From NCBI RefSeq assembly GCF_042660085.1, contig NZ_JBHSTI010000062.1:1-11440 (forward strand): 11,440 nucleotides of DNA. The letters are read 5' to 3'. Under the pieces are notes generated by a model that was not told the DNA's origin, made no database searches, and saw nothing but the letters and a program-made list of their open reading frames with translations. Below, in pieces: positions 1 through 11,440 of the stretch (within the stretch, counting starts at the first letter, position 1; each line of letters begins with the position of its first letter). A program made the translations under genes and the position numbers. This DNA comes from Longivirga aurantiaca (lineage in GTDB: Bacteria; Actinomycetota; Actinomycetes; S36-B12; CAIYMF01).

Positions 1-611
1 CCGGGGACGATGTAGCCCTTGTCGTTGAGGCGCTCGTCGAGACCGGCGGTCACCACGGTGACGTCGACCCCGCGGCCGTCGAAGGCCTCGCGCAGCCGGT
101 CGAGGCCCTCGGGGGCCGCGAGCAGGCAGATCGCCGTGACGTCGGTGGCGCCGCGGCCGAGGAGCAGGTTGATCGCGTCGACCAGCGTGCCGCCGGTGGC
201 GAGCATCGGGTCGAGGACGAAGACCTGGCGCCCCGAGAGGTCGTGCGGCACGCGGTCGGCGTAGGTCGAGACGGTGAGCGACTCCTCGTCGCGGATCATG
301 CCGAGGAACCCGACCTCGGCGGTCGGCAGCAGCCGCACCATGCCGTCGAGCATGCCGAGGCCGGCGCGCAGGATCGGCACGACGAGCGGACGCGGGTCGG
401 CCAGCTTCACGCCCATCGCGGGGGCGACCGGCGTGCTGACGGCGACGCGCTCCACGCGGATGCTGCGCGTGGCCTCGTACGCGAGCAGCGTGACGAGCTC
501 GTCGGCGAGCCGGCGGAAGGTGGGCGAGTCGGTGCGGCCGTCGCGGAGGGTCGTCAGCTTGTGGGCGACGAGCGGGTGGTCGGCGACGTGGATGCGCAGG
601 CTCTCGGGCAT
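1..611 (-). CDS. upp: uracil phosphoribosyltransferase (C-terminal few codons lie beyond window start)
   Basis: Absent from the ORF track because the frame stays open to the window edge. Minus-strand translation from ATG at 611 reads [24 protein letters not shown]...[19 protein letters not shown]...[10 protein letters not shown]. This shows the UPRTase PRPP-binding loop (DPMLATGG) and the start of the C-terminal GYIVPGLGDAGDR motif. Third codon positions are strongly G/C in this frame. Confidence 0.9.
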
Positions 612-768
612 GGCCCGAAGGGTAAGGGGTCGGCGTCCGGCATGTGGCACCTGAGTCCAAGGTCACGCTCGGTCGCCACCGCCAGGCGGCAAAGGTGCAC
701 CGCGAGCGCGCGGCGTCTGTCACTCTGGGGGCGCCCGGTAGACCCGCACGCCCTGAAGGAGGTACGAC

Positions 769-1248
769 GTGGACGACACAGCAGTCGACTTCGCCGTCGC
801 CGCCTGGCGCGAGGACAACCTGTGGCAGCTCGTGACCCTGCCGCCGCGCGCCAGCGAGAGCCTCGACCTGATGATCGACGCGCTCCGCGCCCAGCCCGGC
901 GAGACGGGCACGATCGGCTTCGTGTCGATCGCGGAGGAGCTCTTCATCATCCTGCGCGTCCGCGGCGAGGACGTGCGCCTCCTGATCTCCGACGTGTTCG
1001 CGGCCGAGGACTGGCCGCTGGGCGTCGACGCCCTCGATCGGCTCGGGATCCCCGAGGAGGTCGAGTTCGAGGACTCCGAGCCCGCGGGCGACCTCCGCAT
1101 CGTGGACGACCTCGGGATCGGCCCGGAGGAGATCGAGCTCCTGCTCGACGACCCGGACATGTGGCCCGACGAGGTGCTGGCGAGCATCGCCGCGCGCATC
1201 GGCTTCGGCGAGCAGTTCGACGCCGCCCTCGAGCAGCTGCCCGACTGA
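769..1248 (+). CDS. tRNA adenosine deaminase-associated protein (small acidic actinobacterial protein of unknown function)
   Basis: 159-aa ORF with GTG start at 769, preceded by GAAGGAGG at 755-762 (6-nt spacer). The protein is very acidic and I see no Lys. It lies immediately upstream of tadA on the same strand, which is the conserved actinobacterial arrangement for this family. The family name is recalled from memory (TIGR03941-like), not searched. Confidence 0.75.
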   Translation: MDDTAVDFAVAAWREDNLWQLVTLPPRASESLDLMIDALRAQPGETGTIGFVSIAEELFIILRVRGEDVRLLISDVFAAEDWPLGVDALDRLGIPEEVEFEDSEPAGDLRIVDDLGIGPEEIELLLDDPDMWPDEVLASIAARIGFGEQFDAALEQLPD

Positions 1249-1316
1249 CCCGGCGCTGCCGCTCTGGATGCCTGAGGATCCCCTCCGGGTGACCGTGGGG
1301 CATCCGGATCGGGCCA

Positions 1317-1808
1317 GTGCGCGATGATCGGGACGTGCAGCCACGCCCGACCGACGTCGACGCCGTACGCCGTGCCCTCGAGCAGGCGCGCCGCGCCGGT
1401 GCGGCGGGCGAGGTGCCGATCGGCGCGGTCGTGATCGGCCCCGACGGCGATGTGCTCGGCGTCGGCGCCAACGAGCGGGAGGCCACCCACGACCCCACCG
1501 CGCATGCCGAGGTGGTCGCGCTGCGTGCGGCGGCGTCATCCCTCGGCACGTGGAGGCTCGACGGCTGCGTCCTCGCCGTCACGCTCGAGCCGTGCCCGAT
1601 GTGTGCAGGGGCCGCGTGGCTCTCGCGGGTGGACCGCGTGGTGTTCGGCGCGTGGAACACCGAGTACGGCGCAGCCGGCTCGCTCTGGGACGTGCTGCGC
1701 GACGGCCGTCTCAACCACCGGCCCGAGGTCGTGGCCGGAGTGCTCGCCGACGAGTGCTCCGCCGTCCTCGCCGACTTCTTCGCCGCCCGCCGTACCGCCG
1801 CCGACTGA
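1317..1808 (+). CDS. tadA: tRNA-specific adenosine deaminase (A34 to I34, CDA fold)
   Basis: 163-aa ORF with the two zinc-ligand motifs of the cytidine/deoxycytidylate deaminase fold: THDPTAHAEVVALR (HAE) and TLEPCPMCAGA (PCxxC). Length and N-terminal helix (VRRALEQARRA) are typical of TadA. The start is ambiguous: GTG 1317 or in-frame GTG 1335. Confidence 0.88.
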   Translation: MRDDRDVQPRPTDVDAVRRALEQARRAGAAGEVPIGAVVIGPDGDVLGVGANEREATHDPTAHAEVVALRAAASSLGTWRLDGCVLAVTLEPCPMCAGAAWLSRVDRVVFGAWNTEYGAAGSLWDVLRDGRLNHRPEVVAGVLADECSAVLADFFAARRTAAD

Positions 1809-1820
1809 CGGACGCGAGTG

Positions 1821-1870
1821 ACTGCCCAAATGGTCGCTGAACGGCCTGCTTCAACGACCGTTTGGGCAGT
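1821..1870. terminator. long hairpin between convergent tadA and acyl-CoA dehydrogenase genes (bidirectional terminator candidate, no U-tract)
   Basis: actgcccaaatggtcg (1821-1836) pairs with cgaccgtttgggcagt (1855-1870): 16 bp including one G-U. After one C/A mismatch, 4 more bp form (1838-1841 with 1850-1853) around an 8-nt loop. It lies 13 nt after the tadA stop and 13 nt after the ACAD stop (TAG at 1883-1885 on the minus strand). Confidence 0.6.
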
Positions 1871-1882
1871 AACTCGGAGCCC

Positions 1883-3130
1883 CTAGCTGCGCGGGGGGAG
1901 GTAGGGCTTGAGCTGCTCGCGGGCGATGCTGCGCAGGTGCACCTCGTCGGGGCCATCGGCCAGGCGCAGGGTGCGCAGGCCCGCCCACATCTCGGCGAGC
2001 GGGAAGTCGCCGGAGACTCCGGCTGCGCCGTGCACCTGGATCGCCTTGTCGAGCACCCACAGCGCCTCGCGCGGCGCCACGACCTTGATGGCCGCGATCT
2101 CCGTGGCCGCGCCCCGTACGCCGACCGTGTCGATGAGCCACGCCGTCTTCATCGTGAGCAGCCGCGCCTGCTCGAGGCGGATGCGCGACTCCGCGATCCA
2201 CTCGCGCACCACGCCCTGGTCGGACAGCGGACGGCCGAACGCCGTACGCGCCACCGCGCGCTCGCACATGAGCTCGAGCGCCCGCTCGGCCATGCCGAGG
2301 GAGCGCATGCAGTGGTGGATACGGCCGGGGCCGAGGCGGGCCTGGGCCATCATGAAGCCGCCGCCGCGAGGCCCGAGGAGGTTCTCCTTCGGCACGCGCA
2401 CGTGGTCGAAGTCGATGACGCCGTGGCCGCCGTGCGAGCCGTCGTCGTACCCGAAGACGGTTGTCGATCGCTCGATGGTCACGCCCGGGGCATCGAGCGG
2501 CACGAGGATCATCGACTGGCGCGCGTGCCGCGCGTTGTCGGGGTCGCTCACGCCCATGACGATCGCGATCCTGCACTCGGGGCGCATCGCGCCGGTCGAC
2601 CACCACTTGCGGCCGTGCACCACGTAGTGGTCGCCGTCCTCGATGATCGTGGCGGCGATGTTGGTGGCGTCGGACGACGCGACGTCGGGCTCGGTCATCG
2701 AGAAGCACGAGCGGATCTCGCCGGCCAGCAGGGGGTCGAGCCACTGCTCGCGCTGCTCCGGCGTGGCGAACATGTGCAGCAGCTCCATGTTGCCGGTGTC
2801 GGGCGCGTTGCAGTTCATGGCCTCGGGCGCGATGTGCGCCGAGCGGCCCGACAGCTCGGCGATCGGCGCGTACTCCAGCACCGACAGGCCCGCGCCGTGC
2901 TCGGCGTCGGGGAGGAAGAGGTTCCAGAGCCCCTGGCTGCGCGCTTCGACCTTGAGGCCGGCCAGCACCTCCGGCGTGCGGAACGGCGTACCCGCAGCGC
3001 GGTACGCCGCTGCCTGCCCTTCGAAGGTGTGCTCGGCGGGGTAGACGTGCTCGTCGAGGAACGTGCGCACCTGCTCCTGCAGCGCGAGCGATCGGTCGCT
3101 GTGCCGGAAGTCCATCGTCGTCCCCTTCAT
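1883..3130 (-). CDS. acyl-CoA dehydrogenase family protein, FadE2 / ACAD10-ACAD11 C-terminal-domain type
   Basis: This is the C-terminal 415 aa of the 751-aa track ORF: MKGTTMDFRHSDRSLALQEQVRTFLDEHVYPAE...SCFSMTEPDVASSDATNI...GRKWWSTGA...RLADGPDEVHLRSIAREQL. The ACAD fold signatures are recognisable. ADGPDEVH replaces the canonical YEGT catalytic-base motif, as I recall for the FadE2/ACAD10-11 clade. The start is ATG 3130, or ATG 3115, which has an AAGGGG Shine-Dalgarno 6 nt upstream. The track ORF upstream of 3130 is Arg/Pro junk overlapping the kinase gene in another frame. Confidence 0.9.
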   Translation of the reverse strand: MKGTTMDFRHSDRSLALQEQVRTFLDEHVYPAEHTFEGQAAAYRAAGTPFRTPEVLAGLKVEARSQGLWNLFLPDAEHGAGLSVLEYAPIAELSGRSAHIAPEAMNCNAPDTGNMELLHMFATPEQREQWLDPLLAGEIRSCFSMTEPDVASSDATNIAATIIEDGDHYVVHGRKWWSTGAMRPECRIAIVMGVSDPDNARHARQSMILVPLDAPGVTIERSTTVFGYDDGSHGGHGVIDFDHVRVPKENLLGPRGGGFMMAQARLGPGRIHHCMRSLGMAERALELMCERAVARTAFGRPLSDQGVVREWIAESRIRLEQARLLTMKTAWLIDTVGVRGAATEIAAIKVVAPREALWVLDKAIQVHGAAGVSGDFPLAEMWAGLRTLRLADGPDEVHLRSIAREQLKPYLPPRS

Positions 3131-3159
3131 CGGTTCGTGCGAGTACGTCGTACGTGGGG

Positions 3160-4179
3160 TCAGAGCCGGTCGAGCCAGTGCCGCGACGCGTCGAGCAGGC
3201 GCGGCACGTAGACGCCGACACTGCCGAAGCCGTCGCCGACGGTCTTGCCCTGCAGGTAGCGGGCGTGGATCCCCTCGGCGATGACCGCGAGCTTGAACCA
3301 CCCGAACGCGACGTACCAGGGGAGCGCGGTGAGGTCGCGGGTCGAGCCGGCGGCGTACCGCTCCACCATCGACGTCGGCGAGAGGAAGCCGGCGCCCTCC
3401 GTCATCGGCGCTGCGCCGAACATCCCCTGCTCGCCGAGGGTCTGGTAGACGACGAGGAGGCCGACGTCGGTGAGCGGGTCGCCGAGCGTGGCCATCTCCC
3501 AGTCGACGACGGCCGCGATGCGTGTGACGTCGTGGCTGTAGAGCACGTTGGTGAGCCGGTAGTCGCCGTGCACGATCCCGGGCGCCTGCTGCTCGGGCGT
3601 GCGCGCGGTGAGCCCGGCGACGAGCGCCTCGAGGCCCGCGCGCGGCTCGGTCTCGCTCGCCTCCCACTGCGTGCGCCAGCGCTTCACCTGGCGCTCGAGG
3701 AACCCGTGCGGCTTGCCGAACTGCTCGAGCCCGACCTCGGCCGGGTCGACCGCGTGCAGCGCGAGGAGCGTGTCGACCAGCAGCTCGCACGAGCGGCGCG
3801 CGTCGTCGGCGGTGAGCCGGCCGAGGACGTCGGGGTTGTCGAGGACGACGCCGTCGACGTACGACATGAGGTAGAACGGCGCGCCGTTGACGTCGACGTC
3901 CTCGCAGAGCACGACCGGTGCGGCCACGGGGACGGCGGTGCCGTGCAGCGCGCTGATCACGCGGAACTCGCGGGTCATGTCGTGCGCGGTGGAGAGCACG
4001 TGCCCGAGCGGAGGACGGCGCAGCGCCCACGTGCTCGTGCCGTCCGTGACCCGGTAGGTGAGGTTGGACAGGCCGCCCACGATCACCTCGGCCTGCAGCG
4101 GCCCCCGCCGCAGCCCGGGCGCGGTCGAGTCGAGCCACCCTGTCACCGCATCGAGGTCCAGCCCCGGAAGCCCGCTCAC
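3160..4179 (-). CDS. phosphotransferase family protein (aminoglycoside-phosphotransferase/APH fold; ACAD10-11 N-terminal kinase-like)
   Basis: 339-aa ORF with GTG start at 4179. Kinase-fold motifs are present: GGLSNLTYRV (nucleotide-binding loop region), the Brenner motif IVHGDYRLTNVL (HGDxxxxN) and the metal-binding VVDWEMATLGDP (DxE). It ends 29 nt upstream of the ACAD gene on the same strand. Confidence 0.85.
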   Translation of the reverse strand: MSGLPGLDLDAVTGWLDSTAPGLRRGPLQAEVIVGGLSNLTYRVTDGTSTWALRRPPLGHVLSTAHDMTREFRVISALHGTAVPVAAPVVLCEDVDVNGAPFYLMSYVDGVVLDNPDVLGRLTADDARRSCELLVDTLLALHAVDPAEVGLEQFGKPHGFLERQVKRWRTQWEASETEPRAGLEALVAGLTARTPEQQAPGIVHGDYRLTNVLYSHDVTRIAAVVDWEMATLGDPLTDVGLLVVYQTLGEQGMFGAAPMTEGAGFLSPTSMVERYAAGSTRDLTALPWYVAFGWFKLAVIAEGIHARYLQGKTVGDGFGSVGVYVPRLLDASRHWLDRL

Positions 4180-4201
4180 CCCCCGACGCTATCCCTGCGG
4201 G

Positions 4202-4255
4202 GTTTGCGATGAAGGGGGCCTTCGTTGCTCAGAGCGCAACAATCTGACCCTTCAC
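4202..4255 (+). repeat. copy A of a ~54-nt structured intergenic repeat (subfamily 1)
   Basis: gtttgcgatgaagggggccttcgttgctcagagcgcaacaatctgacccttcac. The first 39 nt match the reverse complement of 5645-5699 at 36/39 positions without gaps. It contains GATGAAGG / CCTTC / CCTTCAC blocks and a GTTGC-N7-GCAAC mini-hairpin. It lies 22 nt from the kinase GTG (4179). Confidence 0.85.
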
Positions 4256-4277
4256 GGGTACATCTGCCGGCTCGCTC

Positions 4278-4377
4278 GTTCGCGATGAAGGCATGGGCCC
4301 CCGCCGGGCGAGAATGGGCGAAGCCCTCGCCCGGTAGGGGACTTCATCCAATAGAGCCGAACAACCCTTCCCATCAT
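4278..4377 (+). repeat. copy D of the same repeat family (subfamily 2) interrupted by a 47-nt hairpin insertion
   Basis: gttcgcgatgaaggc (4278-4292) matches the reverse complement of copy C at 14/15. The block 4342-4364 (cttcatccaatagagccgaacaa) is an exact 23-nt match to the reverse complement of copy C. The intervening 4293-4339 is absent from the other copies. Confidence 0.8.
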
Positions 4378-4405
4378 GCTCGGCGTGTGGCCGGTGCAGC
4401 GCCCG

Positions 4406-5191
4406 TCAGCCGCCGAGGCGCGGGACGCCGAGCTTCACCTGCAGGCCGTTCATCTGCGCCAGCCACCGGTCGGGATCGCCCGCGCGGGCGGCGTAGAACT
4501 GCGCCACCTCGGGGTGCGGCAGCACGAGGAACCTGTCGTCGCCGAACGCCTGCCACACCACCTCGGCCACCTGCTCCGGCTCGAGCGTGCCCTCGTTGTC
4601 CAGCAGCGGCGCCACGGCGCCGACGTCCGCGATCATCGCCGTCCGCACCCCCTGCGGGCACAGCGCCTGCACCACCACGCCCCGGTCGCGGTACGTCGCC
4701 GACAGCCACTCCGCGAACGCCACGGCCCCGTGCTTGGTCACGCTGTACGACGCGTCGCCCACCATCGTGAGCAGGCCCGCCGCGGACGCCGTCACCACGA
4801 ACCGCCCGCCGCCGCCGTCCGCCAGCCATCCGGGCACGAGCGCCCGAGCGGCCCGTACGTGCGCCATCAGGTTGATGTCGATGACCCGCGCCCACTCGGC
4901 GTCGGTCGTCTCGAGCCCGTGCATCACGCCGACCCCTGCGTTGGCGACGTACACGTCGATCCGGCCGAGGTACGTCGTCGCCTCGGCCACCAGATGCGCG
5001 ATCCCTCCCTCGCTCGCGCAGTCACCGGGCACGGCGAGGCCGCCGATCTCGGCCGCGACCGCCTCCGCTCCCGCGGCGTCGAGGTCGTTCACGACGACCC
5101 GCAGGCCCTCCGCGGCGAGGCGCCGGGCGATCGCCCGCCCGATGCCGCCGGCGGCGCCTGTGACGACTGCTCCGAGGGGCGCGCTGCTCAC
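4406..5191 (-). CDS. short-chain dehydrogenase/reductase (SDR) family oxidoreductase
   Basis: 261-aa ORF with GTG start at 5191 preceded by AGGAGG (4-nt spacer). It carries classical SDR motifs: TGAAGGIGRAIA (TGxxxGxG cofactor loop), NAGV, and catalytic YSVTKHG (YxxxK). Confidence 0.85.
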   Translation of the reverse strand: MSSAPLGAVVTGAAGGIGRAIARRLAAEGLRVVVNDLDAAGAEAVAAEIGGLAVPGDCASEGGIAHLVAEATTYLGRIDVYVANAGVGVMHGLETTDAEWARVIDINLMAHVRAARALVPGWLADGGGGRFVVTASAAGLLTMVGDASYSVTKHGAVAFAEWLSATYRDRGVVVQALCPQGVRTAMIADVGAVAPLLDNEGTLEPEQVAEVVWQAFGDDRFLVLPHPEVAQFYAARAGDPDRWLAQMNGLQVKLGVPRLGG

Positions 5192-5301
5192 GGTTCCTCC
5201 TGGTTGCCCGGCTGATCGCCTCGCACGCTAGACCGGTCCGGCGCCCCGCGGGGCCCGTGGCGCCGGTCACCCTCCCCGTGCGCCCCGGTCCCGGCCGATT
5301 T

Positions 5302-5329
5302 CTGACTGACCGCCCGGACCTTGTACTCT
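5302..5329 (+). promoter_or_regulatory. candidate promoter of tRNA-Ser
   Basis: cTGACt (5302-5307), a 16-nt spacer, then TACTCT (5324-5329, fits the actinobacterial TANNNT -10). The -10 ends 7 nt before the mature tRNA 5' end. This is sequence pattern only. Confidence 0.3.
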
Positions 5330-5336
5330 CCTCGGC

Positions 5337-5424
5337 GGTGGCGTGTCCGAGCGGCCGAAGGAGCACGCCTCGAAAGCGTGTGAGGTGCAAGCCTCCGTGG
5401 GTTCAAATCCCACCGCCACCGCCA
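5337..5424 (+). tRNA. tRNA-Ser (anticodon CGA), class II with long variable arm, CCA encoded
   Basis: Manual cloverleaf fold. Acceptor GGTGGCG/CGCCACC. Anticodon stem CACGC/GCGTG with loop CT-CGA-AA. Long variable arm GAGG..CCTC. T arm GTGGG-TTCAAAT-CCCAC. Discriminator G followed by CCA. Confidence 0.93.
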
Positions 5425-5469
5425 TAACGACAGGAGCGCTCCCCTTCAGGGGAGCGCTCCTGTCGTTAT
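5424..5469 (+). terminator. perfect 21-bp hairpin immediately after tRNA-Ser (terminator/processing hairpin candidate, no U-tract)
   Basis: ataacgacaggagcgctcccc (5424-5444), loop ttca, then ggggagcgctcctgtcgttat (5449-5469): 21/21 Watson-Crick pairs. Each arm contains the 10-bp palindrome GGAGCGCTCC. Confidence 0.55.
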
Positions 5470-5593
5470 GCCGGTGGCCCCTCTGATTTGGGAGGAGCAC
5501 CGCCCACCCGGCGCCCCTGCCCCGCCCGATCCCCCCGGCCGAAGGCCGCTCCATCGCCGCGGGCCCGAGCGCCGCACCTGGCCGGCTCGACGG

Positions 5594-5609
5594 ATCCCAC
5601 CGCCACCGC
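5594..5609 (+). repeat. 16-nt direct repeat of the tRNA-Ser 3' end (att-like)
   Basis: atcccaccgccaccgc at 5594-5609 is identical to tRNA positions 5407-5422 (T-arm 3' half, acceptor 3' strand, discriminator and first C of CCA), in the same orientation. Confidence 0.6.
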
Positions 5610-5644
5610 GATGCGCGTGGACGTCGTACGCCGCTCGCCGCGTC

Positions 5645-5699
5645 GATGAAGGCCGGATTTGTTGCGCTCTTAGCAACGAAGGGCCCCTTCATGGCAAAC
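5645..5699 (-). repeat. copy B of the ~54-nt repeat family (subfamily 1, inverted relative to copy A)
   Basis: gatgaaggccggatttgttgcgctcttagcaacgaagggccccttcatggcaaac. Its reverse complement aligns to copy A with about 48 identities over a ~57-column alignment. It lies 9 nt from the DUF202 stop codon (5709-5711). Confidence 0.85.
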
Positions 5700-5708
5700 G
5701 TGCGCGGG

Positions 5709-6071
5709 TCAGGAGCCGAGCAGCAGCCAGAGCACGAGCATGAAGGCGCCGATCAGCGCGACCCCGAGCGACAGCGCCTGCGGCGCCCTCCCGCGCGGCG
5801 GCAGCTCGCCGGCGCGGATCGCTCGGTCGGCTGCCTCATAGCGACGCCAGCCGGCCAGCGACGCGATCGACCCCGCGATGAGCAGCGCGAGGCCCAGCGG
5901 CACACGGGTGCGCAGCTCGGTGCCGAACTGCAGGACGGCGAGGCCGACGGCGACGAGCGAGAGCCCGGTGCGTGCCCAGGCCAGCACCGTGCGCTCGTTG
6001 GCGAGCAGGAACCGCGTGTCGACGTCGACGCGGTCGTGGTGCGTGCGCGTTGCCGGCTCGTCGCTGCTCAC
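5709..6071 (-). CDS. DUF202 (YidH-like) small inner-membrane protein
   Basis: 120-aa ORF with GTG start. RFLLANERTVLAWARTGLSLVAVGL matches the signature N-terminal motif I recall from E. coli YidH (RFSLANERTFLAWIRT). Three hydrophobic segments are consistent with this family. Confidence 0.75.
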   Translation of the reverse strand: MSSDEPATRTHHDRVDVDTRFLLANERTVLAWARTGLSLVAVGLAVLQFGTELRTRVPLGLALLIAGSIASLAGWRRYEAADRAIRAGELPPRGRAPQALSLGVALIGAFMLVLWLLLGS

Positions 6072-6134
6072 GTCCGCAGCCTAGAGCCGTGAACGCCGAC
6101 GCCGGCGTGGTCCTGGCGGTTCGTCGTACGCCGG

Positions 6135-7241
6135 TCAGGGGCTGGCGGCGAGCACGAGGAACGCGGCCATGATCGCGAGGTGCACCGCGCCCTGCAGGCG
6201 CGTGGCGCGACCCGGTACGACGGTGAGCGCCCCGACCACGACCGTCAGGCCGAACAGCACGAGCTGCGTGGCGCCGAGCCCGAGCAGGAGCGGGCCGTCG
6301 AGCCAGATCGACGCGATGGCGATCACGGGGATGGTGAGACCGATGCTCGCCATGGCCGAGCCGAACGCGAGGTTGATCGCGACCTGGGTGCGGTTGCGGC
6401 GCGCGGCGCGGACGGCCGCGAGCGACTCCGGCAGCAGCACGAGCAGCGCGATGACCACGCCGACGACCGCCTGCGGCAGTCCGGCACCGGCTACGGCGTC
6501 CTCGATGAACGGCGACTCCACCTTCGCCAGCCCCACGACGACGACGAGCGAGAGCAGCAGCAGGCCGAGGCTCGACAGCGCGGCGCGCCCGGTGGGCGGA
6601 TCGGCGTGGATGTCGGGGTCGTCGGCGTCGATCGGCACCTCGACGGGGAGGAAGAAGTCGCGGTGCCTCACCGTCTGGGTGATGACGAAGACGCCGTACA
6701 GCGCCGCGGACGCGAGCGCCGCGAACACCAGCTGCACGGTGTTGTACTCCGGCCCCGGGACGCTCGTGGTGAACGACGGGAGCACGAGCGTGAGCGTGGT
6801 CAGCGTCGCGACCGTGGCAAGGGCTGCGCCGCTGCCCTCGGCGTTGAACAGCGCCATGCCGTGCTTGCTCGACGCCGCGAGCAGCGAGATGCCGAGGATG
6901 CCGTTGCACGTGATCATCACCGCGGCGAAGACGGTGTCGCGCGCGAGGCTCGAGGCGCCCGTGCCGCCGGCCGACATCAGCGTGACGATCAGGCCGACCT
7001 CGATGATCGTCACGGCCACCGCGAGCGTGAGCGAGCCGAACGGCTCGCCGACCTTGTGCGCGATCACCTCGGCGTGATGGACGGCGGCAAGGACGGCGCC
7101 GCCGAGGGCGAGCGCGGCTCCGACTGCCGCGAGCACCGGCAGGTCGCGGCCCCACGTGGCCACGAGCACGACCAGCCCGATCACCGGGCCGAGGGTGGAC
7201 AGCGTGGGCCAGCGGGACGTCGAGCTCGTCGCGGCTGCCAT
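6135..7241 (-). CDS. chaA: calcium:proton antiporter, ChaA / CaCA superfamily
   Basis: 368-aa polytopic membrane ORF with ATG at 7241. HHAEVIAHKVGEPFGSLTLAVAVTIIEVGLIV resembles the ChaA alpha-1 repeat region. A second, similar half (GLPQAVVGVVIALLVLLPESLAAV) fits the two-repeat CaCA architecture. Confidence 0.82.
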   Translation of the reverse strand: MAAATSSTSRWPTLSTLGPVIGLVVLVATWGRDLPVLAAVGAALALGGAVLAAVHHAEVIAHKVGEPFGSLTLAVAVTIIEVGLIVTLMSAGGTGASSLARDTVFAAVMITCNGILGISLLAASSKHGMALFNAEGSGAALATVATLTTLTLVLPSFTTSVPGPEYNTVQLVFAALASAALYGVFVITQTVRHRDFFLPVEVPIDADDPDIHADPPTGRAALSSLGLLLLSLVVVVGLAKVESPFIEDAVAGAGLPQAVVGVVIALLVLLPESLAAVRAARRNRTQVAINLAFGSAMASIGLTIPVIAIASIWLDGPLLLGLGATQLVLFGLTVVVGALTVVPGRATRLQGAVHLAIMAAFLVLAASP

Positions 7242-7245
7242 GGGT

Positions 7246-7264
7246 CGATCCTGCCCGAGGATCG
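7246..7264 (-). promoter_or_regulatory. small hairpin overlapping the putative chaA Shine-Dalgarno
   Basis: cgatcct (7246-7252) and aggatcg (7258-7264) form 7 bp with a 5-nt loop. On the minus-strand mRNA, the AGGA located 7 nt upstream of ATG 7241 is the start of the 3' arm. Confidence 0.25.
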
Positions 7265-7341
7265 GGTCGCCACCTATCCGGGCGCCGGCCGCCGGCCGCC
7301 GTGATGCGCGGGTGACGGCACCCCGGATCGATGCGGTGTGT

Positions 7342-7395
7342 GTGAAGGCCGGAATTGTTCGGCTCTATTGGATGAAGGTCGCCTTCATCGCAAAC
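7342..7395 (-). repeat. copy C of the ~54-nt repeat family (subfamily 2, inverted relative to copy D)
   Basis: gtgaaggccggaattgttcggctctattggatgaaggtcgccttcatcgcaaac. It contains a perfect GATGAAGG-tcg-CCTTCATC hairpin and ends 18 nt before the decarboxylase ATG (7414). Confidence 0.85.
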
Positions 7396-7413
7396 GGTGA
7401 GGCGGGCGGGGCC

Positions 7414-8889
7414 ATGATGTGCGGCATGCCTGCGACACCCCTCACCGGTGACCTCGGCGCGACGTACGCCCGGGTGGGCGCCGCGCTCGACCTGTTCCTC
7501 ACCGAGGACAGGCCCGACCCCGTCACGAGGCGGGCGGGCTGGACGAGCGCGCTCGAGCAGCCGCTGCCCGAGCACGGCGTGGGATCCGACGCCACGATGG
7601 CCGAGCTGCTCGACGTCGTCGTCCCGAACGGCACGCGGGTGTCCGACCCCGGCTTCTGGGGCTGGATCGTCACCGGCCCGTCGACGGTGCCGGCCGCGGC
7701 GGCCGCGGCCGCGCTGATCGCCGCGCCGCACCGCTACTCGATCACGGCGTCCAACCTGGTCGAGGACCTCTCGCTGCGCTGGCTGGCCGAGCTCTGCGGC
7801 CTCGGCGCGCACATGCGCGGCGTCTACTCCAGCGGCGGCTCGACCGCCAACCTCGTCGCCCTCGGCGCGGCCCGGCAGTGGGCGTTCGAGCAGCGCGGCC
7901 GCGACGTCGCGCGCGACGGCGTCGACGGCACCCCGCTCGCGCTCTACGCCTCGGCAGAGGTGCACCACACGATCCAGCGCAGCGCCGGGGTGCTCGGCAT
8001 CGGCCGCGCGCAGGTGCGGATGGTGCCGGTGGACGCCGACCTCCGCATGCGCCCCGACGCGCTCGAGGAGCTGATCGCGCGCGACGTCGCCGACGGCGTC
8101 GTCCCCGTGGCTGTCATCGGCACGGCCGGCACCACCAATACCGGCGCGATCGACCCGCTCCGCGCGGTCGGCGAGATCGCGCACCGGCACGGCGCCTGGT
8201 TCCACGTCGACGGCGCCTACGGGCTGCCGGGCAGCCTCGACGAGCGCGTGCGCCCTTTGTACGACGGCCTCGAGCTGGCCGACTCCGCGATCGTCGACCC
8301 GCACAAGTGGCTCGGCGTACCGGTCGGCACCGGCGCCACCTTCGTGCGCGACCGCGAGCTGCTGCGCCGGGCATTCACCCAGGAGCCCGCCGACTACCTC
8401 GCCCCCCAGGAGAGCAGCGACGCCGACGCCCAGACCTCGCTCGACGCGATGGGCGTTCCGTACGCCGACCTCGGGGTCGAGCTGACCGCGCCGGCGCGCG
8501 GTGTGGCGGTCTGGGCCGTTCTGCGCGAGCTCGGCCGCGAGGGCGTGGCCGCGCGCATCCGGCAGGACGACGACTTCGCCCGCCGCGTGGCCGACGAGGT
8601 CCGCGCGCACCCGCGGCTCGAGCTGCTCACCGAGCCCACCCTGTCGATCGTGTGCTTCCGGTACGCGCCAGGGCACGGCGTCGACGACGACGAGCTCGAC
8701 GCGCTGAACGCCGAGCTCGTGCACCGCCTGCACATCTCGACGCCATACGTGCCGAGCACCACCCGCGTCCGCGGCGTCCTCGCGATCCGGCCCTGCTTCG
8801 TCAACAGCCGCACCACCGACGAGGCGCTCGACGGCTTCACCGACACGGTCGTGGCCTTCGGTGACGCGCTGATCGCCGCCCGTCCCTGA
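7414..8889 (+). CDS. pyridoxal-phosphate-dependent decarboxylase, group II (aromatic-amino-acid / glutamate / diaminobutyrate decarboxylase family); substrate not assignable
   Basis: This is the in-frame part of track ORF 7156-8889, starting MMCGMPATPL. Fold-type I PLP features are present: SSGGSTANLVALGAAR, HVDGAYG, and the lysine motif SAIVDPHKWLGVP (xPHKW as in group II decarboxylases). The upstream 86 codons of the track ORF overlap chaA and the repeat, so they are excluded. Alternative in-frame ATGs are at 7417 and 7426. Confidence 0.85.
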   Translation: MMCGMPATPLTGDLGATYARVGAALDLFLTEDRPDPVTRRAGWTSALEQPLPEHGVGSDATMAELLDVVVPNGTRVSDPGFWGWIVTGPSTVPAAAAAAALIAAPHRYSITASNLVEDLSLRWLAELCGLGAHMRGVYSSGGSTANLVALGAARQWAFEQRGRDVARDGVDGTPLALYASAEVHHTIQRSAGVLGIGRAQVRMVPVDADLRMRPDALEELIARDVADGVVPVAVIGTAGTTNTGAIDPLRAVGEIAHRHGAWFHVDGAYGLPGSLDERVRPLYDGLELADSAIVDPHKWLGVPVGTGATFVRDRELLRRAFTQEPADYLAPQESSDADAQTSLDAMGVPYADLGVELTAPARGVAVWAVLRELGREGVAARIRQDDDFARRVADEVRAHPRLELLTEPTLSIVCFRYAPGHGVDDDELDALNAELVHRLHISTPYVPSTTRVRGVLAIRPCFVNSRTTDEALDGFTDTVVAFGDALIAARP

Positions 8890-8901
8890 CCGACCCGCTC
8901 C

Positions 8902-8940
8902 GGATGCCTGTACGGCCTCTGTGCAGGCCTCCCGGCATCC
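8902..8940 (+). terminator. hairpin after decarboxylase stop (weak terminator candidate)
   Basis: ggatgcc (8902-8908) pairs with ggcatcc (8934-8940), enclosing an inner ggcct-ctgtgc-aggcc stem-loop. It starts 13 nt after TGA 8887-8889. No U-tract follows. Confidence 0.3.
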
Positions 8941-9014
8941 AGTGCGGGGCCTTGCGGGGGCGGCGCCCGGGGTTCGGCACGCCCCGGTCACGTGCGGGTC
9001 CTACGCTGCCGCAC

Positions 9015-11440
9015 ATGGCTGATCTCCTCCTCGGCGGACGCATCGACCCGACGACGGGCGAGCGCACCGCCGACACCTCGAGCGTCCCGACGTCCGACCT
9101 GACCACGCACGGCGTCATCGTCGGCATGACGGGCTCGGGCAAGACGGGTCTCGGCGTCGTCCTCATCGAGGAGTGCCTGTCGGCCGGGGTGCCCACGATC
9201 CTGATCGACCCCAAGGGCGACCTCACGAACCTGTGCCTGATCTTCCCCGAGCTGCTCGGCTCCGACTTCCGCCCGTGGGTCAACGACAGCGACGCACGGA
9301 AGGCGGGCCTCGACCTCGACGCGTTCGCCGAGCAGCAGGCGACGTCGTGGCGCGACGGCCTCGGCGGCTGGGGCATCGCACCCGAGCGGCTGGCCGCGCT
9401 GCGCGAGAAGGTCGACTTCACCATCTACACGCCGGGCTCGTCGGCCGGTACGCCGCTCAACATCGTCGGCTCGCTCAACGCCCCGCCGGCGGGCACCGAC
9501 CCCGAGGTGATGAGCGACGAGATCGACGGCTACGTCACCAGCCTGCTCGGCATGATCGGCGTCTCGGGCGACCCGCTCTCCTCGCGCGAGCACATCCTGC
9601 TGGCGAACATCATCCAGAACGCGTGGAGCCAGGGGCAGAACCTCGATCTCGGCCTGCTGCTCGCGCAGGTGCAGCAGCCCCCGATGCGCAAGCTCGGCTT
9701 CCTCGAGCTCGACGCGTTCTTCCCGCCGGCCGACCGCATGGCGTTCGCCATGAAGATCAACGGGCTGTTGGCATCCCCGTCGTTCGCCACGTGGCTCACT
9801 GGCGACCCGATCGACATCGAGTCGATGCTGCGTACGCCGGACGGCCGCCCGCGCTGCGCGATCGTGACGACCGCTCACCTCGACGACGAGCAGCGCCAGG
9901 CGGTCACCTCGCTGGTGCTCTCCAAGCTCGTCACGTGGATGCGCCGCCAGAGCGGCACCAGCGACCTGCGGGCGCTGCTCTACATGGACGAGGTCGCCGG
10001 CTACCTCCCGCCGACGGCGAACCCGCCCACGAAGAAGCCGATCATGCTGCTGCTCAAGCAGGCCCGAGCGTTCGGCCTCGGCGTGGTGCTCTCCACCCAG
10101 AACCCGGTCGACGTCGACTACAAGGCGCTGTCGAACGCCGGCACCTGGCTCATCGGCCGGCTGCAGACCGAGCAGGACAAGAACCGGCTCGTCGACGGTC
10201 TCTCGAGCGCCGCCGGCGGCGTCGACATCGGAGCGGTCAGCGACACGATCAGCAACCTCGGCAAGCGCCAGTTCCTGCTCAAGCGCGCGGGCAAGGACGT
10301 GCCCGAGGTGATGACCACGCGCTGGGCGATGAGCTATCTGCGCGGCCCGCTGACGCGCGACCAGATCGGCCGCGCGATGACGCCGACGGCTGCTCCCGAG
10401 GCGGCGGTGGCCGCACCCGTGGTCGGGGCGGCAGCGCTCGCATCCGCCACGGCTCCCGCCGTCGCACCCGCTGTGGAGCCCGCGGCCGCGACCGCGCCGG
10501 CGGCGGCGGCGTCGACCGCGGTGCCCGCTCCGGCCGCGCCGCCGGTGGTCGGCACGTCCACGCCCGCGGTCGCGGGCGATGACGAGACGCCCGTGATGCC
10601 GTCGGTCCCCGCGGGCGTGCCGGTCGCGTTCGTCGACCCGGCAGCGCCGTGGCTCGCGTCGGTGGGCTGCGTGCCCGGCGGCCAGCACCTGCGGGCCGGT
10701 GCCGTCGCGCGCGTGATGCTGCGCTACGACGACGTACCCGCCAACTACGTCCACGACGAGGAGTACGAGGCGGTCCTCACGACGCTGCCGCAGGTGCCGG
10801 CGTCCGCGGTGTTCACCGCCGTCGACTACGACGACCGCGACCTCGTGGCGAGCCCGCCCGTCGGCTCGGTCTACGCACTGCTGCCCGGCGAGGTGGTGAA
10901 GAAGCCGTACTGGACCGCCCTGCAGAAGGCGCTCGTCGACACCCTCGTGCGCACGCGCACCGAGGAGATCTACGTCAACAAGGCGCTCAAGGCCTACTCG
11001 CGGGCGGGCGAGACGCGCGGGGAGTTCATCGTGCGCTGCGAGGCCCTCGCGGGCGAGCAGGCCGACAAGGCCATGACTGCGCTGCGGACGAAGTACGCCA
11101 CCAAGCTCGACTCCGCGCGCCTCAAGGTCACCGACGCCCAGATCGCCGCGCAGGGTGCCCGAGCCGAGTACGACGCCAACTTCGGCATGGCCGCTACGGT
11201 CACCTCCGCGCTGGGCAGTCTGCTCGGCGGACGCCGCAGCCGGTCGTCGATCACGTCGCAGGCGCGCAAGGAGGCCACCGCCTCGGCCAAGCTCGGGTCG
11301 ACCGCCGCCAAGGCCGACGCCGCCGCCCGCGCCTACACCGACCTCGAGGCACGCCTCAACGAGGAGATCGTCGCGCTCGACGACCAGTGGAAGGCCACGG
11401 CGTCGACGGTCGAGACCAAGGCGGTGCCGCTGTCGAAGTC
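9015..11440 (+). CDS. large HerA/FtsK-superfamily P-loop ATPase (DUF87/DUF853, YjgR-like core) with Ala/Pro-rich linker and uncharacterised C-terminal domain; 3' end beyond window
   Basis: Absent from the ORF track because the frame stays open from ATG 9015 to the window end (808 codons). Hand translation gives MADLLLGGRIDPTTGER...THGVIVGMTGSGKTGLGVVLIEE (Walker A, 9123-9146), ILIDPKGDL, ALLYMDEVAGYLPP (Walker B, about 9975-9992) and VVLSTQNPVDVDYKALSNAGTWLIGRLQTEQD. G/C third positions are strong throughout this frame. Confidence 0.8.
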   Translation, partial: MADLLLGGRIDPTTGERTADTSSVPTSDLTTHGVIVGMTGSGKTGLGVVLIEECLSAGVPTILIDPKGDLTNLCLIFPELLGSDFRPWVNDSDARKAGLDLDAFAEQQATSWRDGLGGWGIAPERLAALREKVDFTIYTPGSSAGTPLNIVGSLNAPPAGTDPEVMSDEIDGYVTSLLGMIGVSGDPLSSREHILLANIIQNAWSQGQNLDLGLLLAQVQQPPMRKLGFLELDAFFPPADRMAFAMKINGLLASPSFATWLTGDPIDIESMLRTPDGRPRCAIVTTAHLDDEQRQAVTSLVLSKLVTWMRRQSGTSDLRALLYMDEVAGYLPPTANPPTKKPIMLLLKQARAFGLGVVLSTQNPVDVDYKALSNAGTWLIGRLQTEQDKNRLVDGLSSAAGGVDIGAVSDTISNLGKRQFLLKRAGKDVPEVMTTRWAMSYLRGPLTRDQIGRAMTPTAAPEAAVAAPVVGAAALASATAPAVAPAVEPAAATAPAAAASTAVPAPAAPPVVGTSTPAVAGDDETPVMPSVPAGVPVAFVDPAAPWLASVGCVPGGQHLRAGAVARVMLRYDDVPANYVHDEEYEAVLTTLPQVPASAVFTAVDYDDRDLVASPPVGSVYALLPGEVVKKPYWTALQKALVDTLVRTRTEEIYVNKALKAYSRAGETRGEFIVRCEALAGEQADKAMTALRTKYATKLDSARLKVTDAQIAAQGARAEYDANFGMAATVTSALGSLLGGRRSRSSITSQARKEATASAKLGSTAAKADAAARAYTDLEARLNEEIVALDDQWKATASTVETKAVPLSK

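Follow-up and report, generated by a model that had tools for sequence, protein, structure and literature searches.

A new family of hairpin-bearing intergenic repeats in an uncultured actinobacterial lineage

Small palindromic repeats are well catalogued in Proteobacteria but hardly at all in Actinobacteria. The biology of the REP, BIME and REPIN sequences serves as the comparison for the present work (PMC2817692, PMC3116915, PMC3337134); a REP head, situated 5' of the palindrome, reads GT(A/G)G (PMC2817692). In Mycobacterium, to which it is reportedly restricted, the TRIT sequence overlaps the coding sequence, its centre being at about -8 relative to the stop codon (PMC3152330). Here we describe a repeat that occurs four times in an 11,440-nucleotide stretch of DNA from Longivirga aurantiaca (contig NZ_JBHSTI010000062.1, positions 1–11,440), referred to below as the window. 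It belongs to a family of repeats that is new, of a kind already known, and carried by an uncultured lineage of Actinobacteria. The copies are abundant and strictly intergenic, they fall into discrete, near-identical subfamilies, and they show no bias with respect to gene strand. Individual sites have gained, lost or replaced their copies, and neighbouring copies lie tail to tail. The family is probably a non-autonomous, DNA-level palindromic intergenic repeat of the REP, BIME, ERIC or MITE kind. A first-pass annotation of the window had read the four copies as a dispersed repeat resembling REP/BIME or MITE elements, and all the refutation tests that it named came out in favour of that reading.

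Copies, subfamilies and range of the repeat

The four copies, designated A, B, C and D, are members of one family and lie at the positions given by the first-pass annotation. In the repeat finder, A and the reverse complement of B are 93% complementary over 41 nt, D and the reverse complement of C share an exact 23-mer (4342–4364 and 7355–7377), and A and C match at 72% over 54 nt. D and the reverse complement of C also agree at 14 of 15 positions where GTTCGCGATGAAGGC stands against GTTTGCGATGAAGGC. The sequence GTTTGCNATGAAGGNNNCCTTC is found exactly in A, B and C, and had 0 matches among 200 dinucleotide-preserving shuffles.

Many copies lie outside the window, a point that was one of the checks proposed for the dispersed-repeat reading. 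A hidden Markov model (HMM) built from 80 copies was applied to about 0.46 Mb of related DNA from metagenome-assembled genomes (MAGs) and metagenomes and to 0.85 Mb of unrelated loci. It yielded about 132 copies in the DNA of the lineage and three weak partial matches in the unrelated DNA. In blocks chosen because they contain a seed copy, further copies occur about once per 15–18 kb. By extrapolation, the copy number per genome would be about 10^2, the approximately 132 copies being pooled from several genomes.

Full-length copies are found repeatedly in at least five MAG assemblies of one high-GC lineage (JBFWNE01, JBBQAY01, CAWJMG01, CAVTWM01 and DATCCY01). A stricter pattern gave 102 matches on 93 contigs of the JGI metagenomes, and about 85 of the 102 are copies of the family. 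The first pattern, used on GTDB species representatives, contained 18 specified bases and a variable gap and was too loose: it returned at least 113 matches, mostly in unrelated sequence, where chance alone would give about 70 by our estimate. The more distant syntenic relatives L117 and L119 (L numbers are our labels), with a protein identity of 76–83%, contain no copy in 34 kb. Neither consensus had a BLAST match in the plasmid collection. Viral contigs gave five pattern matches, none of which has the element core beyond the search pattern; four of these five lie in sequence of 55–63% GC that looks coding by eye.

Position profiles of the 80 copies place the boundaries of the unit, which is about 55 nt long, at the head on the left and at approximately TCAYCG on the right. 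The unit starts with the head GTTTGC, followed by a hairpin of 8–10 bp, GATGAAGG-N3-CCTTCRT, and a subfamily-specific core that ends in AACAA. A variable tail, about 6 nt long, and a third block, CCTTCAY, make up the 3' part. Terminal inverted repeats of 9 bp are formed by CGATGAAGG, which pairs with CCTTCATCG. Three subfamilies can be distinguished, with the consensus GTTTGC-GATGAAGG-GGG-CCTTCGTTGCTAAGAGCGCAACAA-N6-CCTTCAC for Ia, GARTGC-GATGAAGG-TGR-CCTTCGTTGCATAGAGCGCAACAA-TTCCGG-CCTTCATCG for Ib and GTTTGC-GATGAAGG-CGA-CCTTCATCCAATAGAGCCGAACAA-N6-CMWTCAY for II. Each is near-invariant, both within the subfamily and across genomes, and subfamily II has a tail variant, IIb. The core 14-mer of Ib was counted 38 times, that of Ia 26 times and that of II 6 times. 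In the window, A and B belong to Ia, and C and D to II.

Copy A (4202–4257, plus strand; nhmmer score 58.7 bits) consists of the head GTTTGC (4202–4207), the hairpin GATGAAGG-GGG-CCTTCGT (4208–4225), a mini-hairpin GTTGC-N7-GCAAC (4224–4240), the variable tail (4243–4248) and the third block CCTTCAC (4249–4255). It lies 22 nt upstream of the start codon of an APH-family phosphotransferase gene (4179, minus strand). Copy B (5645–5699, minus strand; 57.9 bits) has its head at 5694–5699, starting 9 nt past the stop codon of a DUF202 gene, and departs from the consensus twice, in CATGAAGG and in the loop GGC. Copy C (7342–7395, minus strand; 63.5 bits) is situated in the divergent spacer between the genes of a Na/Ca exchanger and a pyridoxal phosphate (PLP) decarboxylase, with its head 18–21 nt upstream of the decarboxylase start. 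It is in frame with the decarboxylase open reading frame (ORF), listed as 7156–8889. Miscalled N-terminal extensions are possible near the repeats, because an ATG at 7372 within the hairpin of C scores as a start codon with a naive gene finder.

Copy D (4278–4377, plus strand) is a long form of subfamily II with a length of 100 nt. Its head GTTCGC (4278–4283) and left arm GATGAAGG (4284–4291) are followed by a nested hairpin module, CATGGGCCCCCGCCGGGCGAGAATGGGCGAAGCCCTCGCCCGGTAGGGGA (4292–4341), which stands where the 3-nt loop would be. The right arm, CTTCATC, occupies 4342–4348, the segment CAATAGAGCCGAACAA 4349–4364 and a degenerate end 4365–4375. With this module of about 50 nt in place of the loop, D is an enlarged version of the C-type element. 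The motif layout that the first-pass annotation had assigned to all four copies therefore needs amendment. B has CATGAAGG instead of GATGAAGG, and D retains the head and left arm but has no 3-nt loop, a right arm reading ACTTCATC and a far end, CCCTTCCCATC, that differs from CCTTCAY. A and D stand in tandem, both between the stop codon of an SDR gene and the APH start.

Long forms occur in both subfamily backgrounds, in window copy D and in L108, L149, L043 and L006, with a nested hairpin of about 47–50 nt in the loop. The nested module of D recurs solely in element loops (L149, 96%; L108, 96%; L006, 87%; L043). Its consensus fold over the five copies contains 24 pairs, two of them with compensatory double changes.

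An additional 3' module, GCNCGGCGTY-RTCCACAGG, follows about 15% of the copies, always 10 nt past the TCAY of the tail. Carriers of RTCCACAGG(CC) include L005, L100, L040, L114 and L210. TCCACAG is at exactly this position in 13 of its 22 intergenic occurrences. The motif, which is not coding, often reads TTGTCCACA, which we take to be the high-GC DnaA-box consensus. By eye, D seems to bear a degenerate version of the 3' extension (4376–4395).

Simpler units related to the family are present in Pseudonocardiales, in Actinophytocola algeriensis (L001, 5781–5880) and Lentzea flava (L009, 1340–1400). They form intergenic arrays of two or three GATGAAGG-N3-CCTTCATC hairpins with a spacing of exactly 30 nt, and the arrays end in the identical head, GCAAAC/GTTTGC. 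In Lentzea, this head is 15 nt from a stop codon.

Placement, arrangement and turnover

Genes were called with our own codon-usage gene finder, which reproduces the Pfam-supported genes of the window as well as the called genes of L115. Although the DNA is 82% coding, all 102 instances fall outside predicted genes. This result bears out the intergenic bias that the first-pass annotation had proposed to check, and its statement that all four window copies are intergenic holds against the Pfam-supported genes. The 71 copies whose spacers could be classified are distributed over 37 tandem, 20 convergent and 14 divergent spacers, and the background ratio is 232:68:73. The divergent share is thus 20% (14/71), approximately that of the background (73/373), and divergent promoter regions are not avoided. 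In tandem spacers, the head strand is the mRNA strand in 20 copies and the opposite strand in 14. Heads point toward 3' ends of genes 44 times and toward 5' ends 35 times. Orientation relative to genes is close to random, and subfamily and orientation are not associated.

Orientation relative to other copies follows a strong rule. The 14 adjacent pairs within 1 kb comprise 12 in tail-to-tail arrangement with the heads outward, two in tandem and none head to head. Among the tail-to-tail pairs, five stand close together as doublets, with gaps of 5–53 nt, and seven surround one small gene, encoding a GNAT protein, a P-loop kinase, a DsrE-like protein or similar. After merging of orthologous pairs, about 10 of 12 are tail to tail against an expected 25% (p ~4e-5, an estimate). 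This rule points to an organisation at the DNA level, which RNA function does not predict. Clusters are formed by A and D in the window (in tandem) and are also seen in L054, L108 and L033 (element plus a simple hairpin); most copies are solitary.

Comparison of orthologous regions reveals changes in the set of copies. L053 (JBBQAY01) is syntenic with window positions 1–5605 at 84–88% nucleotide identity; it has kept A, and the 100 nt of D as well as B are missing. An orthologue of A is also present in L175. The JBFWNE-type contigs L114, L115 and L116 contain orthologues of C and B, and B has a further orthologue in L153 (92.7% identity). In the SDR–APH spacer, L114, L115 and L116 have a single type II copy that combines the tail of D with the downstream flank of A; in L115 this copy lacks the nested module. 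One spacer therefore exists in three states in three lineages: D (II) plus A (Ia), Ia alone, and II alone.

The same kind of difference recurs at other loci. A GNAT gene is flanked by IIb on both sides in L098 and by Ia on both sides in L193, in segments that are colinear over 2.8 kb and 83% identical. The L125 group (Ia) and L144/L196 (Ib) carry oppositely oriented elements in a common intergenic region. The simplest account of these sequences would be repeated insertion beside an existing copy followed by the loss of one of the two, and the D plus A tandem of the window is a possible replacement intermediate. Gene conversion among copies is an alternative account of the subfamily replacement. 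Between orthologous copies, the 41-nt core is identical at 40 of 41 positions and the 6-nt tail at 2–3 of 6. Judged from these alignments, the core may be conserved either because a recognition sequence is constrained or because the copies homogenise one another.

Relative to window positions 5696–5700, L115 contains about 2.4 kb extra (5617–8011) between DUF202 and the copy B orthologue, with a 196-aa ORF and genes with MCP-signal and PAS domains, and this indel adjoins the element head. In L153 (1337–1667, compared with window 5490–5609), a piece of about 120 nt from the spacer that separates copy B from the tRNA hairpin is repeated in tandem.

Mobile repeat, 3'-end hairpin and other explanations

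If the family is a DNA-level repeat of the REP or MITE kind, new copies would arise in intergenic DNA by spreading or copying, frequently next to copies already there or as substitutes for them. They would persist only where genes stay undisrupted, and would later be lost by deletion or recombination. By analogy with the REP–RAYT system, the hairpin ends of IS200/IS605 and the inverted repeats of MITEs, the head and the hairpin could be the recognition structure of a putative trans-acting enzyme. A copy whose head faces the end of a gene would provide the mRNA with a stable 3' hairpin, a presumed side effect that may help retention.

Several observations weigh against this interpretation. The 25 commonest Pfam families among 102 non-redundant neighbour genes, which are ordinary metabolic and housekeeping genes, do not include a transposase, and tblastn with approximate sequences of IS200 TnpA and the Escherichia coli RAYT as queries gave nothing below E=1 in 1.3 Mb. 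All-against-all clustering of the neighbour proteins produced only groups of orthologous synteny and no multi-copy gene cluster, and none of the genes enclosed by inverted pairs that were examined is transposase-like. This negative is weak, because just a few per cent of any one genome is covered. Profiles and flank listings of the 80 copies revealed neither a target-site duplication nor a conserved target motif, and no clean pair of filled and empty sites was found among near-identical strains. Movement is read from comparisons at about 85% identity, so that gene conversion or deletion could mimic insertion. In addition, the kin in Pseudonocardiales share both the head and the hairpin, and such sharing is unusual for fast-evolving selfish repeats. 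Finally, the distance to the stop codon has a median of 14.5 nt for the head and 49 nt for the tail (Mann–Whitney p=0.0004). The closeness of head and stop codon could hint at a selected 3'-end function and not at pure selfishness.

A more specific version of the mobile-repeat interpretation is an actinobacterial counterpart of the REPIN–RAYT system, in which a vertically inherited population of hairpins would be kept by a single-copy, domesticated putative enzyme. We regard this as a tentative and distinctly unlikely extension. Were it true, the GTTTGC head and the GATGAAGG hairpin would be recognised by this enzyme, not necessarily a Y1 transposase. Copying into or beside existing elements would then explain both the in-place replacement of subfamilies and the tail-to-tail rule, and the Actinophytocola and Lentzea units would mark an old recognition system that extends across orders.

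An explanation by host selection would regard the element as a 3'-end hairpin similar to TRIT, acting as a factor-dependent or non-canonical terminator, a pause site or a stabiliser of mRNA. Repetition would then be secondary to function, and the hairpin would act in both directions because it is palindromic. The position of the head argues for this explanation, since it lies within 20 nt of the stop codon in 27 of the 44 cases in which it faces a 3' end. Part or all of the asymmetry may stem from a degenerate 3' extension, about 20 nt long, that goes unrecognised at the tail. The 24 nt preceding the head are rich in C and poor in G (44% C, 28% G), the 10-bp stem of subfamily I contains two G-U pairs that are workable on the head strand only, and the stems are predicted to be stable (-16 to -23 kcal/mol). 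There is also a precedent in the 147 conserved palindromic TRIT copies located tightly at stop codons in a high-GC actinobacterium (PMC3152330).

In contrast, the hairpin is not followed by a U-tract, which mycobacterial RNA polymerase reportedly requires at intrinsic terminators (PMC3993855). There is no T-run past either end of the family consensus, and 0 terminator-like sites were found in 4000–7600, as anticipated by the first-pass annotation, which had seen no U-run or canonical terminator. For TRIT itself a terminator role is doubtful by Term-seq, its predictions coinciding with only 2–4% of the mapped termination sites of M. tuberculosis (bioRxiv 10.1101/2022.06.01.494293). Furthermore, 14 of the 71 classified copies, including C, lie in divergent promoter regions, many copies are situated directly upstream of start codons, as are A and C, and close relatives differ by gains and losses of copies, the flanking genes showing no visible change. 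We consider a selected 3'-end function unlikely as the primary explanation; it is compatible with the mobile-repeat interpretation, which we favour.

The first-pass annotation had named a structured RNA as the alternative to a repeat, that is, a small RNA or a cis-regulatory RNA of the riboswitch or attenuator type in which the three TGAAGG/CCTTCA blocks adopt alternative conformations. Two mutually exclusive folds are indeed predicted within a few kcal/mol of each other, which alone is no evidence of a switch. A and C are also located about 20 nt upstream of start codons in like orientation, and the core is strongly conserved. The RNA tests used a gap-free alignment of 90 sequences (A11). In the terminal hairpin, 96% of the cells are paired, the eight inner pairs are essentially invariant, and changes on both sides of its pairs do not exceed those in shuffles (106/500). 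The closing stem is 84% paired, its three outer pairs have uncompensated mismatches in 29–39 of the 90 sequences, and both-sided changes are again not above shuffles (452/500). The mini-hairpin is confined to subfamily I and thus missing from II. Rfam 15 gave no match over the copies when the whole window was searched at E<=10, as the new-family reading needs, and short sub-windows at the same cut-off gave generic hairpin matches alone, with 7–18 bits against thresholds of 37–94. Convergent, tandem and divergent spacers all contain copies, and the neighbour genes are functionally unrelated. With mixed orientation (20 sense, 14 antisense) and no informative covariation, an RNA function is quite improbable.

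Coding and promoter functions were considered as well. Mini-ORFs such as MKATFIQ* and MKGAFVAQSATI* were rejected as coding, the subfamilies differing non-synonymously only and frames and stops not being conserved. A C-terminal peptide "..CG(Q/R)xxx*" ending in the TCA of the element was rejected too, as the ORFs in this frame have 3–437 aa and often fewer than 15. The peptides MLRAQQ and LHPIEPNN, which the first-pass annotation had found in common between spurious ORFs, are visible in the ORF list. No sigma-70-like promoter was detected in 4000–7600, and the hexamers of the element, inspected by eye, lack TANNNT.

The element could also be a site on duplex DNA for a host protein, a nucleoid-associated protein or global regulator, with the 19-bp palindrome GATGAAGG-N3-CCTTCATC and TGAAGG blocks about 30 bp apart, equal to three helical turns. 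The palindrome is perfect and invariant in sequence even at positions that have no structural role, and the spacing of 30 nt is exact both for the TGAAGG blocks and for the tandem hairpins of L001 and L009. The RTCCACAGG module of about 15% of the copies resembles an actinobacterial DnaA box. However, copies are equally common downstream and upstream of genes that have no common function, sites are gained and lost between close relatives, and the nested long forms and compensatory changes favour recognition of a hairpin over that of a duplex. No candidate protein was found; known actinobacterial operator consensus sequences (of LexA, IdeR, Zur, Rex, GlnR, KstR and others) had no match by eye, which serves as a lead only. 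We judge this explanation very improbable.

Chance similarity or an assembly artefact, for which only the short length of the unit speaks, is negligible in view of the 0 matches expected by shuffling, the identical repeat sequences in independent NCBI, ENA and JGI assemblies and the orthologous copies kept in syntenic contigs.

Genomic setting and comparison with known systems

The window has a GC content of about 72% and is actinobacterial. Its nearest public proteins are 91–92% identical (best homologues of the Na/Ca exchanger) and come from MAGs labelled Candidatus Nanopelagicales bacterium. The Pfam-supported map contains an Rv3753c-like ORF (769–1248) and tadA (1317–1808) on the plus strand, followed on the minus strand by genes for an acyl-CoA dehydrogenase (1883–3130), the APH-family phosphotransferase (3160–4179) and SDR (4406–5191). 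The minus strand also encodes DUF202 (5709–6071, stop codon 5709–5711) and the Na/Ca exchanger (6135–7241, start 7241). The PLP decarboxylase is encoded on the plus strand (about 7414–8889, start 7414/7417), and tRNA scans place a tRNA-Ser(CGA) gene at 5337–5424 on the plus strand.

An inverted repeat of 31 bp with 97% complementarity at 5415–5478 overlaps the 3' end of the tRNA-Ser gene, its left arm starting within the 3' end of the tRNA acceptor. It has no U-tail and gave spurious Rfam matches to miRNA precursors; the hairpin that L115 carries here is a different one. The contigs L114 (~14300) and L115 (~8399) are 98.7% identical over 8.4 kb and then fully divergent, and the point of divergence lies within the last ~24 nt of the tRNA-Ser gene. 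This break suggests a tRNA-integrated island or a rearrangement in one strain. Another palindromic repeat, at 1811–1877, is situated between the convergent tadA and acyl-CoA dehydrogenase genes; its arms of 27 nt, CGAGTGACTGCCCAAATGGTCGCTGAA and TTCAACGACCGTTTGGGCAGTAACTCG, are 89% complementary. Because copies with about 80–84% similarity occur at the non-orthologous sites L045 5529–5594 and L114 3588–3649, the lineage probably has a second repeat family. Between the acyl-CoA dehydrogenase and APH genes, L053 has 79 extra nucleotides (5324–5403, against window 3155/3156) that do not match the repeat family described here.

The consensus, defined with its three subfamilies, long form and 3' extension, enables annotators to mask about 10^2 spurious ORFs and false small RNA or terminator calls per genome of this lineage. 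The copies can also be used to type strains and to flag the breaks that repeats cause in MAG assemblies. The family invites one to ask which agent mobilises hairpin repeats, or homogenises them, in a phylum for which the REP/RAYT literature consulted makes no mention of RAYT. Its least expected features are the in-place replacement of subfamilies, with D plus A as a possible intermediate, and the strength of the tail-to-tail rule; the nested long form and the RTCCACAGG module at a fixed distance are also unusual.

TRIT is, by analogy and as compared by description, the closest actinobacterial counterpart. Like the present family, it is a conserved palindromic sequence with about 10^2 copies in a high-GC actinobacterium, bidirectional, associated with stop codons and devoid of a U-tail. 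Here, however, the head lies at +1 to +20 after the stop codon in the head-proximal copies, and many copies are far from 3' ends. MITEs such as Correia and RUP are likewise small, non-coding and dispersed, with terminal inverted repeats, subfamilies and insertion polymorphism; the family differs in that about 55 nt is at the very low end of their sizes and that no target-site duplication, parent insertion sequence or target was found.

The ERIC sequences of enterobacteria, which measure about 127 bp, are usually transcribed and are unrelated in sequence, are set apart by description. With ERIC/IRU elements the family shares intergenic imperfect palindromes that exist in short and long forms through insertions at fixed internal positions, here the module of about 47 nt within the hairpin loop.

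From REP sequences the family is distinguished by its head, which is GTTTGC in Ia and II and GA(G/A)TGC in Ib and contains neither GTAG nor GTGG; since the GT(A/G)G head is lacking, we do not file it as REP. In its unit of about 55 nt there are also a third block and a long core that is conserved but not palindromic, copies occur mostly as singlets instead of doublets, and the host is actinobacterial. The REP systems of Proteobacteria use RAYT Y1 transposases, none of which was found in the 1.3 Mb searched here. As neither a RAYT nor a parent insertion sequence nor a target-site duplication was detected, "REP/MITE-like" describes the look and behaviour of the family and not its mechanism. In other respects the family resembles REP, BIME and REPIN sequences. 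A short imperfect palindrome is adjoined at its stem by a non-palindromic 5' head, and many near-identical extragenic copies, in both orientations, fall into discrete classes. They form clusters and inverted doublets, here five in tail-to-tail arrangement, and orthologous sites keep their copies over substantial divergence.

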